A DNA stretch of 63,990 bases, counting the filler, from a bacterium (lineage in GTDB: Bacteria; JBBIVP01): NCBI GenBank assembly GCA_037439705.1. It is 3 parts of 3 records of this genome, joined end to end, with 100 filler letters (N's around TTAATTAATTAA, not from the genome) between each part and the next. Parts side by side here need not be neighbours in the genome. Positions count along the whole stretch, not along the records: positions 1 to 26,246 come from JBBIVP010000007.1; 2 more parts are not named here. One strand, given 5' to 3'. Both the position numbers and the translations under genes were made by a program. The notes under the pieces are model-generated. The model was given only the letters and a program-made list of their open reading frames with translations, did no database searches and was not told the origin of the DNA. Shown here piece by piece: positions 1,628-63,727 of the stretch (position 1 is its first letter; the number at the start of each line of letters is the position of its first letter).

Positions 1628-2046
1628 AGATTTTTATAGAAAAAGAGGCTTTTGATAAAATGATAGAGCACTTGAAAAGCACTTATCCGGAAGAGGGGTG
1701 TGGATTTTTAATAGGAAAAGCTGGAAAGGTTTATTTAACATTACCAGTTTTAAACAAAGCAAAAGATGACAGAAGGAGAAACTATGAGATAGCCCCAGAA
1801 GATTTTCTGAAAGCGGAGAAATTTGCTGAGAAAAATACCCTTTCTTTACTTGGATTCTACCATTCCCATCCAGATGTGGGGTTGTATTTTTCAAAAAAGG
1901 ATGAGGAGGATGCCTGGGAGGGATATTATTATCTTGTCGTGGCGCTAAATAAAAATGGGAAATGGGAGTGCGGATGTTGGATTAAAAGAAAAAATATGGT
2001 AGAAAAAATAAAATTTGAAATAGAAGGAGGAAGAAATGACGGTTAA
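1624..2046 (+). CDS. JAB/MPN+ (Mec-like) metallopeptidase
   Basis: EEGCGFLIG...GFYHSHPD-x4-FSKKD is an intact JAMM motif; lies between cysM and the sulfur carrier. Confidence 0.9.
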   Translation: MKIFIEKEAFDKMIEHLKSTYPEEGCGFLIGKAGKVYLTLPVLNKAKDDRRRNYEIAPEDFLKAEKFAEKNTLSLLGFYHSHPDVGLYFSKKDEEDAWEGYYYLVVALNKNGKWECGCWIKRKNMVEKIKFEIEGGRNDG

Positions 2047-2554
2047 AATAAGGATACCTACTCCATTGAGGAGTTTGTGTGAAGGTAAGGAAATTGTGGA
2101 GGTGGAAGGAAAAAATTTGATGGACGCACTGAAAAACCTTAATGCAAAATATCCTGGATTCAAAGAGAGGCTTTTTGATACAAACGAGGAGCTGAGGAGG
2201 TTTGTGAACATCTTTGTAAATGAAGAGGACATTCGTTTTTTGAACGGATTGAATACATCCCTTAAAGATGGAGATGAGGTTTCCATTGTTCCTGCAATAG
2301 CAGGAGGTAAAAAAAAGGTTTTGAGATTGTATCTCACCTATCCACATCATTTAATAAAAGAACCCATAATTTATCAACTTGGAAAGAAGTTTAAAGTCGT
2401 TCCTAACATAAGAAGTGCTACGGTGAAGGGTGAGATAGGGCTTGTTGCACTTGAACTATCAGGTTCTGAGAAGGAACTTGAGAAGGCTTTGAAGTGGCTT
2501 GAGAAACTCAGGATAAAGATAGAACCAATTGAACAGGATATAGTTGAGGGGTAG
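2036..2554 (+). CDS. MoaD/ThiS/CysO ubiquitin-like sulfur carrier (to ...PAIAGG) fused to a C-terminal NIL domain
   Basis: VKIRIPTPLR...RFVNIFVNEEDIRFL...DGDEVSIVPAIAGG, then LYLTYP..LIKEPIIYQLGKKFKVVPNIRSA..GLVALELSG (NIL-like); SD GGAGG upstream. Confidence 0.85.
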   Translation: MTVKIRIPTPLRSLCEGKEIVEVEGKNLMDALKNLNAKYPGFKERLFDTNEELRRFVNIFVNEEDIRFLNGLNTSLKDGDEVSIVPAIAGGKKKVLRLYLTYPHHLIKEPIIYQLGKKFKVVPNIRSATVKGEIGLVALELSGSEKELEKALKWLEKLRIKIEPIEQDIVEG

Positions 2555-2555
2555 T

Positions 2556-3284
2556 GTGGAGCTTTCTTTATCAGAAAGGGAAAGATATTCAAGGCAGATT
2601 TTGATATTTGGTGAGGAGGGCCAGAAGAAACTGAAAAATGCGAGAGTGGTAGTAGCGGGTGTAGGCGGACTCGGTTGCCCAGCCGCTTTATATCTTGCTT
2701 CCCAGGGAGTTGGTAAAATCAGGATTATTGATAAGGATGTGGTTGAGGCTTCAAATCTGAACCGACAAACCCTTCACTGGACAAGAGACATAAAGAAGCC
2801 AAAGGTTGAATCAGCATCCGAAAAGTTGAAGGAAGTAAACAGAGATGTGGAGATAGAGAAGTTTCTTGTTGAAATAAATGAGAAAAATGTAAATGAACTT
2901 CTTGAGGGTTCAGATGCAGTAATAGATGCGATGGATAATTTTCCAACAAGGTTTATACTCAACGAAGCAGCGGTCAAATTAAGGATACCATTTTTTCATG
3001 GGTCAATTTATGGGCTTGAGGGAAGGGCAATGACTGTTATTCCAGGCAAAACTGCTTGTTTGAGATGCTTTTTTTCAGAATCTCCACCAAAAGAGGTTTT
3101 TCCTGTTCTTGGCTCCACTCCCGCATTGATTGCTATGATTCAGGTTACCGAGGTTATAAAATACCTTACAGGAGTGGGAAGGCTTTTAGAGAACAGGTAT
3201 CTCATATATGACGGAGAAAGTATGACCTTCAGGGAAATAAAAATAAGAAGGAATCCAGAATGTCCGGTATGCGGAAAGATATAA
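2556..3284 (+). CDS. ThiF/MoeB-family E1-like adenylyltransferase
   Basis: RYSRQI, GVGGLG, DVVEASNLNRQ, CLRC and CPVC zinc motifs; GTG at 2556 is the likely start (ORF track starts at 2544). Confidence 0.9.
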   Translation: MELSLSERERYSRQILIFGEEGQKKLKNARVVVAGVGGLGCPAALYLASQGVGKIRIIDKDVVEASNLNRQTLHWTRDIKKPKVESASEKLKEVNRDVEIEKFLVEINEKNVNELLEGSDAVIDAMDNFPTRFILNEAAVKLRIPFFHGSIYGLEGRAMTVIPGKTACLRCFFSESPPKEVFPVLGSTPALIAMIQVTEVIKYLTGVGRLLENRYLIYDGESMTFREIKIRRNPECPVCGKI

Positions 3285-4114
3285 AAAAATTTGATCCATC
3301 CATTCTCAGATATTCTAAGGAAGAAAGATATTTGAGATATTTACTTTCCATCCACGGTTTAAAGAAAGCGGTTAATCTTTTCATAAAAGTTTTTTCCTCT
3401 TTTTTTGAGGGTTTTCTTCTCGGTGAGTCTGTGAAGGCTACTGAAGAGAATTATCCTCACATTTATAAAATTGCGAAAAGATCAGCCTCAATTCTTAACC
3501 TTAAAAATCCTCCGCATATTTTTATTGCCCAGGAGCCACTTTTTATAGCCTACACAATCGGAACGAAAGAAAAGCATCAAATTGTTCTTTCCTCAGGCAT
3601 TGTGGAAAACTTTGACGAGAAGGAGATATCTTTTGTGATAGGGCACGAGATAGGTCATATTATTTTTGACCATCTGATTTTTCAGTCCATAATTGCATTT
3701 TATACAATTTTTATTTCAAGATTGCCATTTTTAAAATACGCACTTTTTCCATCCTTTCTTCCACTCCTGGCATGGTCAAGAAGTGCTGAGATATCAGCGG
3801 ACCGAGTTGGACTTTTCGTATGCAGGGATATAAGAGCATCAATAAATGCCATGATAAAACTTTCAGGAGGAAAGGGAATTCTTGAGCATGTAAAGGTTGA
3901 GGAATACATGAAACAATTTGAATTTCTTAAAAAATCTCCCGGAAGATTTTTAGAGATTTTTTCAACCCATCCCTTTCTTTCAAAAAGGGGAAAGGCAATT
4001 TTTGTTTTTTATAATTCTTCTTTTTATAAAAATGTTATTAGATTTAAAAAAATTACCCCCTCTTTTAAAGAGGGGGTAGAAAGGGAGGTAGGGAGGGTTA
4101 TGAGGGTGAGGTAG
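3260..4114 (+). CDS. M48-family zinc metallopeptidase
   Basis: GHEIGH (HExxH), WSRSAEISADR, STHP motifs. Confidence 0.85.
   Translation: MSGMRKDIKKFDPSILRYSKEERYLRYLLSIHGLKKAVNLFIKVFSSFFEGFLLGESVKATEENYPHIYKIAKRSASILNLKNPPHIFIAQEPLFIAYTIGTKEKHQIVLSSGIVENFDEKEISFVIGHEIGHIIFDHLIFQSIIAFYTIFISRLPFLKYALFPSFLPLLAWSRSAEISADRVGLFVCRDIRASINAMIKLSGGKGILEHVKVEEYMKQFEFLKKSPGRFLEIFSTHPFLSKRGKAIFVFYNSSFYKNVIRFKKITPSFKEGVEREVGRVMRVR
4046..4078 (-). terminator. Intrinsic terminator for the minus-strand micro-operon, embedded in the 3' end of the M48 gene
   Basis: Perfect inverted repeat TACCCCCTCTTT-T-AAAGAGGGGGTA (4054-4078), followed on the minus strand by a T7 tract (A-run 4046-4052). Confidence 0.7.
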
Positions 4115-4150
4115 TTACTTCTTTTTCTTTGCGGCTTTCTTCTTCGCCAT
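4115..4150 (-). CDS. 11-aa lysine-rich micropeptide MAKKKAAKKKK (not in ORF track)
   Basis: ATG at 4150, TAA at 4115-4117; SD GGAGG 5 nt upstream. Confidence 0.65.
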   Translation of the reverse strand: MAKKKAAKKKK

Positions 4151-4174
4151 TTTCTCCTCCATTATTTTTCTTTT

Positions 4175-4225
4175 TTATTTTTTCTTTTTTGTTGCTTTTT
4201 TCTTGGTTGCTCCGCACTTGGCCAT
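4175..4225 (-). CDS. 16-aa lysine-rich micropeptide MAKCGATKKKATKKKK (not in ORF track)
   Basis: ATG at 4225, TAA at 4175-4177; SD AGGAGGT 6 nt upstream. Confidence 0.7.
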   Translation of the reverse strand: MAKCGATKKKATKKKK

Positions 4226-4258
4226 TGCTATACCTCCTAAAATATATTTTCATTTTTA

Positions 4259-4286
4259 ATTATATATATTTTCAAACTTTTGTCAA
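4259..4286 (-). promoter_or_regulatory. Consensus sigma70 promoter for the micropeptide operon
   Basis: TTGACA (4286-4281)-N16-TATAAT (4264-4259) on the minus strand. Confidence 0.75.
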
Positions 4287-4389
4287 GTAAAATTTTACAT
4301 TTTTAAATTGTGAAAATTACCCACCAAAAATCGGTTTTCATTTAAAATTTTATTTGAAAATTTTCCTGTTTTTAATAAAAATTTTATTT

Positions 4390-4773
4390 ATGAACTTCTT
4401 GAAGTTTGGAGTATCTGAAAAGAAGGAAAAAGAACTTTTTGAAAAAATGGAAAAACTTGGAGTGAAAGAAGAAGACATAATTGAAAAGTTTATTCTATCA
4501 AGTGGGAAAGGCGGACAGAAGAGGAACAAAACTTCAACCTGCGTTTATCTGAAGCACATTCCTACAGGAATAGAGGTAAAATGTGAAAAGACAAGGTTTC
4601 AGGCTCTCAACAGATTCTTTGCGAGGAGGATTCTGCTTGAAAAAATAGAGCAAAAACTTCTCGGAAAGGAAAGTTCTTCGTTTAAAGAAAGAGAAAGAAA
4701 AATTAAACAGAAAAAGAAGAGAGAAAAGAGGGCAAAGAAAAAATATTCCCAAGAGGTGATTCCTTATGGCTGA
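4390..4773 (+). CDS. Stand-alone release-factor-domain protein (GGQ peptidyl-tRNA hydrolase, ArfB/C12orf65-like ribosome rescue factor)
   Basis: FILSSGKGGQKRNKTSTCVYLKHIPTGIEVKC..R.Q..NR, basic C-terminal tail, no codon-recognition domains; ATG 4390 preferred start. Confidence 0.85.
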   Translation: MNFLKFGVSEKKEKELFEKMEKLGVKEEDIIEKFILSSGKGGQKRNKTSTCVYLKHIPTGIEVKCEKTRFQALNRFFARRILLEKIEQKLLGKESSSFKERERKIKQKKKREKRAKKKYSQEVIPYG

Positions 4774-61557: not shown

Positions 61558-62381
61558 CCTTTCCTCAAAATAAGAACACGCTCCTTTCCAGCGAGGTCTT
61601 TCACGGTCCAGAAGGAAGATACCCTTATTTCACTCCTTATCCTTTCCATCTGTCCTTCTCCAATTTCAATCATAATATAACCTCCATTTTTGAGGTATTC
61701 CAGACTTTCCCTCAAAATCCTTTTTATGAACTCATCTCCATCCTTTCCAGCCACAAGAGAAGAAACCGGCTCAAAATGAAGTTCGGGATTCTCAAGGAAT
61801 TCTGAATAAGAAAGATATGGTGGATTTGAAAGAATCATATCGAATGTTTCATACTTAAACTGAGAAAAACAATCCCCGCAGATTAAAAAAATTCTATTAT
61901 CAAGTCCGTAATTTTTTAGATTTTTTTCTGCAACCATCAGAGCATCATTGGAAATGTCCGAGGCATAAATCTCAGAACCCGGAGAATTCATAGAAAATGC
62001 AATTGCTATTGCGCCTGAACCCGTTCCAAGGTCAAGAACCCTTGATGAAGGATTTGGACTAAGCTTTAAAGCAGATTCAACGAGTATCTCTGTTTCAGGT
62101 CTCGGGATGAAACACCTTTTATCAACATAAAGAGGAATTGAGAAAAATTCTTTGTTTCCTATTATGTAAGCCACTGGCTCGTCCTTTAATCTCCTTAAAA
62201 CCATATCATAAAAAATTTTATACTCCCTATCCCCTATCTCCCTTTCCGGATGTGCGATTATAAACTCCCTTTTCAAACCTGTCGCATAAGAAAGAAGGAT
62301 TTCAACCTCAAACTTGTCAAGACCAATTTCCTCATCAAAGATATCACGAATTTTTTGACAGCTTTTCAATTTCCATTGCAT
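61554..62381 (-). CDS. prmC: Release factor glutamine methyltransferase
   Basis: EPVAYI, IPRPETE, DLGTGSG, SNPPY. Confidence 0.95.
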   Translation of the reverse strand: MQWKLKSCQKIRDIFDEEIGLDKFEVEILLSYATGLKREFIIAHPEREIGDREYKIFYDMVLRRLKDEPVAYIIGNKEFFSIPLYVDKRCFIPRPETEILVESALKLSPNPSSRVLDLGTGSGAIAIAFSMNSPGSEIYASDISNDALMVAEKNLKNYGLDNRIFLICGDCFSQFKYETFDMILSNPPYLSYSEFLENPELHFEPVSSLVAGKDGDEFIKRILRESLEYLKNGGYIMIEIGEGQMERIRSEIRVSSFWTVKDLAGKERVLILRKG

Positions 62382-63429
62382 TAAAATGCTCTCTCAATTT
62401 TTCAATCAACTCATTTAGTTCACCATCAATAAATTCCTTGAGATTATAATCAGTCCAGTCTATCCTGTGGTCGGTTACTCTGTTCTGCGGAAAGTTGTAT
62501 GTTCTTATTTTTTCACTCCTTTCAGCCCTTCCAACCTGCATTCTCCTCATTGAACTTATTTTCTCCATACTTTCAGTTTCCATTCTTTCCTTTAATTTAG
62601 CGTAAAGAATCTTCAATGCCTTTGCCTTGTTCCTGTGCTGGGATTTTTCATCCTGACAGTGAACGCTTATGCCTGTTGGTATGTGCATTATTCGGACAGC
62701 AGATTCAGTTTTATTGACATGCTGTCCACCATGCCCTGATGCACGAAATGTCTCAATCCTCAATTCATCAGGTGAAATTTTTACATCAACCTCATCAGCC
62801 TCCGGAAGAACTGCAACAGTGCATGTGGATGTATGGATTCTACCTGAAGATTCAGTAACAGGAACCCTCTGAACCCTGTGCACTCCACTTTCATATTTCA
62901 AGATGCTGTATGCCCCCTTTCCTTCTATGAGAACTATTACCTCCTTGTATCCCTTGAGTCCTGTTGTATTCGCTGAAAGAATCTCGGTCTTCCATCCTTT
63001 CCTTTCCGCAAACCTAAGATACATCCTCAAAAGGTCTGCTGCGAACAGACTTGCCTCCTCTCCGCCTGTTCCAGCCCTCATCTCAAGGATAACATTCCTA
63101 TCATCCATCGGATCTTTCGGTATCAACAATTCCTTGATTTTTTTCGAAATTTTTTCTATCTTGTCAGAAATCCTTTCCAGTTCCTGTTTTGCATCATCCC
63201 TTATAGATGGGTCTTCTTCGCACAGGGCTTTCAGTTCTTCGTACTCCCTTATAAAATTCCTGTATTGCCTCAAGGAAAGGACAATTTCCTCTATTTCAGC
63301 CCTTTCCTTCATAACCTCCGCATATTTCCTCCCCTCCAGTTTTTCATTCTCAATAATCCTTGTAAGTTCTTCGTATCTATCCTCTATCTTTTGAATGCGC
63401 TCAAGAAGATTTTGAGGAAGTTTTTCCAT
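62344..63429 (-). CDS. prfA: Peptide chain release factor 1
   Basis: [18 protein letters not shown] (PxT), [11 protein letters not shown]. Confidence 0.97.
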
Positions 63430-63616
63430 ATTTCCTTCTGAACTTCTCTATCTTTCCCTCTGTATCAACAAGTTTCTGCTGACCTGTAAAAAATGGATGG
63501 CAGTTTGAACATATCTCAATTGTATAGCTTCCCCTCGTTGACCTCGTCTTTATAACATTTCCACAGGTACAGGTAATAACTCCTTCTTTATACTCTGGAT
63601 GTATTCCTTTCTTCAT
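63401..63616 (-). CDS. rpmE: 50S ribosomal protein L31 (zinc-binding type)
   Basis: [23 protein letters not shown]. Confidence 0.97.
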
Positions 63617-63727
63617 TTTTCTCTCCTTTTGAGTTTTTGAAAATTATAAATAATTTCTCCTTCACAAGCAAGTTTTTCCAAAAAGATACTCCTACACCCT
63701 CAAAAATTCTAAAGTTATTTCGTAGTG

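Follow-up and report, generated by a model that had tools for sequence, protein, structure and literature searches.

A conserved two-ORF unit likely to encode lysine-rich peptides of 16 and 11 residues in a bacterium with no close named relative

We show that a short minus-strand unit, at positions 4286-4046 of a 63,990-base stretch of bacterial DNA (assembly GCA_037439705.1; hereafter the window, by which we mean the whole stretch analysed), is conserved in related metagenome contigs in a way that makes it very probably a translated gene. A consensus sigma-70-type promoter would give rise to a transcript of about 205 nucleotides (nt), from about 4253 to about 4046, carrying two independently initiated micro open reading frames (ORFs) and ending at an intrinsic terminator inside the 3' end of a convergent M48 peptidase gene. 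The products would be two polycations, peptides 16 and 11 residues long. As to what they do, we favour, at a little less than even confidence, a role as general polycations. The peptides may be abundant and diffusible and may neutralise polyanions, whether DNA, RNA (including ribosomal RNA, rRNA) or polyphosphate; they would act as a genetically encoded counterpart of histone H1 tails or polyamines, without a fixed binding site.

The initial annotation had described the promoter, two Shine-Dalgarno (SD) sequences, two ORFs and a hairpin with a tract of seven T, all of which were recovered in place on the minus strand. The -35 hexamer TTGACA (4286-4281) is separated by a 16-nt spacer from the -10 hexamer TATAAT (4264-4259). 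This promoter matches the consensus at 12 of 12 positions and ranks first among the 11 promoter-like sites scanned between 3000 and 5500. Transcription probably starts at about 4253-4251. The first SD (AGGAGGT, 4238-4232) lies in a 33-nt leader, the 5' untranslated region (UTR; 4258-4226), 6 nt before the ATG of ORF 1 at 4225. ORF 1 (4225-4175) comprises 16 codons and a TAA stop; its peptide begins with a seven-residue head containing one Cys, continues with two small-small-Lys-Lys-Lys pentads and ends with a last Lys. A 24-nt inter-ORF spacer (4174-4151) contains the second SD (GGAGG, 4160-4156), 5 nt before the ATG of ORF 2 at 4150. ORF 2 (4150-4115) has 11 codons and a TAA stop, and its peptide, MAKKKAAKKKK, is made of two pentads and a last Lys. 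Lysine accounts for 8 residues of the 16-residue product and 7 of the 11-residue product. The two peptides had been noted to look paralogous, which fits their being built of the same pentads, seen also in a wider class of genes described below.

The lysine codons were said to mix AAA and AAG, and they do: ORF 1 has five AAA and three AAG, ORF 2 two AAA and five AAG, i.e. seven AAA and eight AAG over both, and the longest A runs are six (ORF 1) and five (ORF 2). We considered whether AAG is enriched so as to interrupt A runs, but the 8 AAG among 15 lysine codons do not differ significantly from the fraction of 0.35 in the window (p = 0.11). The stop of ORF 2 adjoins that of the convergent M48 ORF (3260-4114, plus strand). 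It is followed by a C/U-rich 3' UTR of 36 nt with CCUCC-like motifs (4114-4079), antisense to the end of the M48 ORF, and by the terminator (4078-4046), formed by a hairpin (4078-4054) and the T tract (4052-4046). The hairpin has 11 pairs, six of them G-C, and a 3-nt loop, and folds at -18.8 kcal/mol (z = -3.67). At the DNA level the sequence forms a 12-bp palindrome centred on a single base, which bears out the perfect 12-bp inverted repeat with seven T reported inside the M48 3' end.

Relatives of the unit were reached through the nearby aroB gene (3-dehydroquinate synthase). In a protein search with aroB, four matches had 72-74% identity; after them came matches at 56% and 51%, and no other exceeded 49%. 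Aligning the first seven of these proteins led to five metagenome loci at 72-76% (L001-L005). The window, L003, L004 and L005 have in common the gene order ThiS/NIL, ThiF, M48, the unit, an RF-1-domain protein and aroB, and part of this order is present in L002. Four of the five contigs keep the unit, which is complete in L003-L005 and interrupted within ORF 1 by the end of L002. L001 tracks its relatives up to the -35 box and then runs through 145 nt of unrelated sequence to the contig end, which could reflect a rearrangement, an insertion or an assembly break. Our conservation set consists of the window and L003-L005, with L002 added for ORF 1; these sequences are few, all metagenomic and mutually related.

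Between the window and L003-L005 the neighbouring proteins are 71-86% identical and third codon positions are 37-49% different. At this divergence the signals of the unit are almost unchanged. The -35 hexamer is identical in all four relatives that reach it (L002-L005), and the block from -35 to -10 differs from the window at 1 of 28 positions in each of L003-L005, while the 66-67 nt directly upstream of -35 differ at 24-25 positions. The first SD and its 6-nt spacing are kept in four sequences out of four (as AGGGGGT in L004), and so are GGAGG with its 5-nt spacing before ORF 2 and the terminator (-18.4 to -18.8 kcal/mol). The inter-ORF spacer varies in length, with indels of 9-10 nt and more.

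The ORFs themselves change mostly where the peptides do not. The ORF 2 peptide is identical in 4/4 sequences, and its variable columns number 0, 0 and 5 at codon positions 1, 2 and 3 (p = 0.004); the corresponding figures for ORF 1 are 4, 1 and 9. Pooling both ORFs, 14 of 19 variable columns fall at the third position (p = 0.0004). The ORF 1 peptide is the same in the window, L003 and L005, where only synonymous changes are found. L004 has a 23-residue version with the Cys shifted by one place, one Ala to Thr replacement and a seven-residue Lys/Glu extension. The L002 version carries Gly to Ser and Ala to Thr replacements and reads on past the stop until it is cut by the contig end. All five sequences retain the Cys. 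Synonymous-biased conservation in relatives was the check that the initial annotation had put forward, and this bias, with both SDs and their spacing kept, came out in its favour. Together with the retained synteny, promoter and terminator, it strongly supports the original proposal of a complete, unannotated two-ORF unit that is translated. An alternative frame of 51 codons (4098-4253, minus strand) was rejected: L003 alone among L003-L005 has an ORF of at least 50 residues at this place, some spacer indels are not multiples of three, and the observed substitutions would be non-synonymous in that frame.

Could such an arrangement be a product of chance in an A-rich intergenic region? The window has 37-40% G+C, and short A-rich ORFs arise easily at such compositions. 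Yet perfect TTGACA-N16-18-TATAAT promoters occur twice in the window against 0.03 expected, and none of 100 shuffles gave two. All elements are kept in three to four lineages whose synonymous sites have diverged by about 40%, and the flank upstream of the promoter has changed at over a third of its positions whereas the promoter block has hardly changed. The conservation of the unit and the rarity of its promoter already contradict a chance origin, to which we give next to no credence.

The other perfect promoter in the window (63756-63728, minus strand) is located some 110 nt ahead of an ORF (63380-63630, minus strand) that we recognise by eye as ribosomal protein bL31, followed by RF1 (62344-63429, minus strand). 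That the only other such promoter precedes a bL31-like ORF suggests very high expression of the micropeptide unit. A scan for SD-preceded micro-ORFs rich in Lys or Arg over 81 records (708,016 nt) returned 16 rows, seven of which correspond to the present pair and orthologous ORFs; the remaining nine encode 6-20 residues and are mostly Arg-rich.

The terminator of the unit lies within a coding gene of the opposite strand, and this overlap has left a trace. The unit's 3' UTR and terminator overlap the last 23-24 codons of M48, the hairpin and about 70 nt of 3' untranslated sequence being antisense to the last 23. Third positions vary in 5 of 24 codons of this M48 tail, against 155 of 235 codons in the body of the gene (p = 2.7e-5), and the C-terminal tail is also conserved as protein. 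This suppression of synonymous variation indicates a second constraint on that stretch, which would most simply be the terminator and 3' UTR of the micro-operon. In L004 the terminator has two A-to-G changes; the minus-strand RNA keeps its 11-pair stem through G-U pairs while the stem in plus-strand RNA falls to nine, and a U tract is found on the minus strand only. A terminator inside a convergent coding gene offers a clean natural example of a DNA segment under two constraints at once. The M48 tail (4044-4114, plus strand) comes after the end of the Pfam M48 domain (residue 247 of 284), and its plus strand is a run of G tracts.

The C/U-rich 3' part of the transcript also invites a reading in which the unit is mainly a non-coding small RNA, acting as an anti-Shine-Dalgarno regulator, with ORFs that are incidental or secondary. 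Like small RNAs, the unit has its own promoter and terminator. Its CCUCC-like motifs are predicted to pair with GGAGG, here with its own SDs: both single-sequence and alignment folds pair the two SDs with these motifs in all four sequences. However, compensatory changes were found in 0 of the 31 predicted pairs, and the C-rich part also codes for M48, which means that its conservation cannot count as independent evidence. Searched against Rfam, the unit region gave no family at the gathering threshold, only 15 sub-threshold matches, the best with 25.5 bits against a threshold of 100; over the whole window Rfam recognised just two tRNAs, both away from the unit. The third-position bias and the invariant ORF 2 peptide speak for translation, and a mainly non-coding role seems to us very improbable.

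Further light comes from genes of the same design in other genomes. We define a class of polylysine micro-genes as ORFs of about 10-55 codons with at least 45% Lys, containing small-small-Lys-Lys-Lys pentads and ending in a Lys run and a stop. Both window ORFs have this length, Lys share, pentad structure and ending, and the unit also has the strong SDs, promoter boxes and downstream intrinsic terminator that go with the class. A search with the back-translated ORF 2 pattern, allowing up to three mismatches, matched in 14 of 401 sampled Omnitrophota genomes, and the reversed pattern, used as control, gave 0 matches. Eleven of the 14 are pentad ORFs of 12-38 residues and three are Lys-rich ends of longer ORFs. 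All 11 come with promoter-like boxes and an SD-like purine run, and a G+C-rich hairpin with a T run lies downstream (visual inspection for boxes and hairpins). A looser pattern (three Lys, any two residues, four Lys, stop) gave 41 matches in 38 of 301 Omnitrophota genomes, against six control matches. Among the 30 loci inspected, 28 are ORFs of 12-53 residues, most of them preceded by an SD-like motif. This looser pattern is not a general property of bacteria: the phylum of G406 gave five matches, in 4 of 201 genomes, against five in the control, and the phylum of G410 four, in 4 of 124 genomes, against five.

The 28 ORFs comprise 10 of pure pentad type, 15 in which a Cys-containing head precedes the same Lys tail, and three of a third type. 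The Cys-headed type (L179-L191, L195 and L196) has 16-22 residues with one to four Cys, often two of them two residues apart; ORF 1 of the window, with its one Cys, looks intermediate. In the third type (L176-L178) a head of Lys, Asp, Arg and Gly is followed by 6-10 consecutive Lys. The same Lys-rich motif is also found as the tail or head of longer ORFs (L161, L162 and L174): one of 90 residues, by eye bL31, one of about 345 residues with a Lys-rich N-terminal extension of about 90, and one of 104 residues with an internal duplication and a Lys tail. The number of pentads per class member ranges from two to about 10. By their design, the window peptides would represent the minimal form of this stand-alone polylysine class, which is unannotated and common in Omnitrophota. 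A search of 5.8 billion predicted proteins with the 49-residue stop-to-stop translation around the 37-residue peptide of L170 returned no candidate of 26-86 residues, although low-complexity words may limit such a search.

Class members do not keep constant company. According to Pfam, 20 flanking ORFs from 10 class loci are heterogeneous and mutually unrelated. A fixed neighbour association was ruled out by tblastn of the window M48, RF-1-domain, ThiF and aroB proteins against 44 class loci (L161-L204), which found one place with M48 (L165 and L194, in G258) and one with an RF-1-domain protein (L161). The range of pentad numbers and the heterogeneity of the flanks fit a non-specific electrostatic role.

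These surroundings matter for the idea that the unit is a cis-acting sensor, in which runs of Lys codons report the supply of lysyl-tRNA or the stalling of ribosomes and read-through gives antisense RNA to the M48/ThiF/ThiS operon. A short ORF rich in one codon family with a terminator 36 nt later is what such a device might look like, the position of the terminator within the convergent gene means that read-through would be antisense, and the divergent neighbour is an ArfB-like ribosome-rescue gene. Nevertheless, no co-oriented gene lies downstream, only the antisense strand of M48 and ThiF, and neither the single nor the alignment fold contains a structure competing with the terminator (ribosome-dependent kinetic folds fall outside the model). 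A sensor would have no use for two ORFs with separate SDs, nor would it explain that residues other than Lys are conserved through synonymous changes. The neighbouring operon is without evident link to lysine, and class members sit between unrelated genes in mixed orientation. We regard a sensor as quite improbable.

Alternatively, the peptides might be exported or membrane-active polycations, antimicrobial or directed at a host, or precursors that first undergo modification or cleavage. Short polylysine peptides are generally membrane-active. The Cys kept in all ORF 1 sequences, the related Cys-headed subclass in Omnitrophota and the M48 protease that adjoins the unit, and once more a class member in G258, could be read in this sense. 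But that second M48 neighbour is the only one among the 44 class loci, and class flanks are otherwise unrelated. The peptides have no signal peptide or leader, and the locus has neither a transporter nor a modification enzyme. This alternative strikes us as improbable, if slightly less so than a sensor.

The main rival to a general polycation is that the peptides are specific ribosomal microproteins, each lodged in a defined rRNA pocket in the manner of bL37, bS22, bTHX and eL41. The peptides are very basic and begin with Met-Ala-Lys, their SDs are strong, their promoter equals that of the bL31-like gene, and ORF 2 is invariant in 4/4 sequences. There is also a precedent: PMC5876184 describes bL37 of Mycobacterium smegmatis as a protein of 24 residues buried in an rRNA pocket that was long overlooked. 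However, products of 11 and 16 residues are less than half the size of the smallest known case, and the unit lies outside any ribosomal protein operon. The length of class members varies between 12 and 53 residues with the number of pentads, unlike that of ribosomal proteins, which is somewhat against a fixed pocket. Pfam and NCBIfam searches require at least 20 residues, more than either window peptide has; the 23-residue L004 version of ORF 1, used as a stand-in, matched 0 families with E up to 10. We consider a specific ribosomal role unlikely, while ranking it above the other alternatives.

We return to the general polycation. We favour it since the class, with its pentads, their varying number and its dispersed, housekeeping-like loci, resembles the chlamydial histone-like protein Hc2. 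In its fullest form our reading is that genes of 11 and 16 codons, expressed like those of ribosomal proteins, encode oligolysines that replace polyamines or histone tails on DNA, rRNA or polyphosphate, and that they are the minimal form of a large class missed by gene callers in Omnitrophota and other uncultured phyla. Few conserved, free-standing protein genes as small as these would then have been seen in bacteria. We put this forward as a tentative proposal, with appreciably less confidence than the reading as a translated gene.

Several observations weigh against parts of this picture. The basis for the proposed function is composition only. ORF 2 is fully conserved even at positions other than Lys, which is more than a bulk counter-ion seems to need. 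The variable columns behind the codon-position statistics come from few, interrelated metagenome sequences (four or five) and do not amount to independent events. The conservation of the 3' UTR is inseparable from the coding constraint on M48. The fold of the whole transcript is unexceptional (z = -1.71, with 12 of 200 shuffles folding equally well), and covariation does not support the long-range pairing between the SDs and the 3' UTR. The link from the window to the Omnitrophota class rests on likeness of design, the peptides being too short and simple for a test of homology. Finally, two marker genes disagree on the nearest named relatives of the window: aroB points to metagenome-assembled genomes named Omnitrophota, found among the matches at 49% or less, and RF1 to Thermodesulfobacteria and Dictyoglomus.

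The window's RF1 has matches at 80-83% identity, followed by those two groups at 58-63%. The aroB alignment found none closer than 46-47% among the matches listed for GTDB species representatives, and scans with the M48 protein alone recovered no relative in genome or metagenome contigs. By these marker genes the lineage has no close named relative. Upstream of the unit lies the divergent gene for a small GGQ or RF-1-domain protein (ArfB-like; 4390-4773, plus strand), which we mention for context and do not assign to the unit. Its start at 4390 is suggested by the orthologues of 125-126 residues in L003-L005, where the gap between M48 and this gene is about 265 nt. Between the unit's promoter and the RF-1-domain gene, L001-L005 have a palindromic hairpin of the type CCTTYCC ... 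GGRAAGG (about 5560-5590 in L003, about 5565-5590 in L004); its counterpart in the window, at about 4316-4340, is degenerate. M48 transcripts that read through the unit might end at this hairpin. On the other side, a ThiS-NIL fusion, a ThiF-family enzyme and the M48 peptidase form an operon (2036-4114, plus strand) that may be comparable to sulfur-carrier-protein pathways whose carrier is trimmed by a metalloprotease.

Should the peptides indeed be produced, they would show that strict purifying selection can act on genes of 11-16 codons, and that such genes can have the strongest expression signals of their genome and yet be missing from every protein database. This would change our view of the charge balance of the nucleoid or the ribosome in uncultured, small-celled bacteria. 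The peptides are simple and can be synthesised chemically, and are thus a convenient object for testing such ideas.

Leader peptides of amino-acid attenuators, of the hisL and pheL type, resemble the unit in that a single amino acid predominates in a peptide of 11-16 codons and a terminator follows. The unit differs from them in having no co-oriented downstream operon, no predicted antiterminator, and two ORFs with conserved residues other than Lys. The proteins bS22, bTHX and eL41 are further ultra-short basic ribosomal proteins. Like these and bL37, the window peptides are tiny, very basic, missed by annotation and presumably highly expressed. Yet ribosomal proteins of this kind have a fixed length and a defined rRNA pocket, whereas the class varies in repeat number. 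A literature search found nothing on encoded polylysine micro-peptides, supplementary tables, a possible home of such ORFs, being outside its scope. The closest parallel may be Hc2 of Chlamydia (hctB), which, according to PMC2848022, is a DNA-binding protein of 165-237 residues whose size varies through the number of lysine-rich pentamers. The window peptides and their class resemble it in their Lys-rich pentad repeats, in the variation of repeat number between lineages and in their very high positive charge. They depart from it in their length of 11 and 16 residues (two to three pentads), in the separate start codon and SD that each of them has within a free-standing unit, and in having no Pfam match (for the 23-residue L004 variant); DNA binding is stated for Hc2 and is a proposal for the window peptides. 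By this analogy, the unit may be read as H1-like proteins of Lys-rich pentamers cut down to two or three pentads and set up as free-standing micro-genes, and what is unusual in it is the two-ORF layout and the terminator embedded in a convergent gene.

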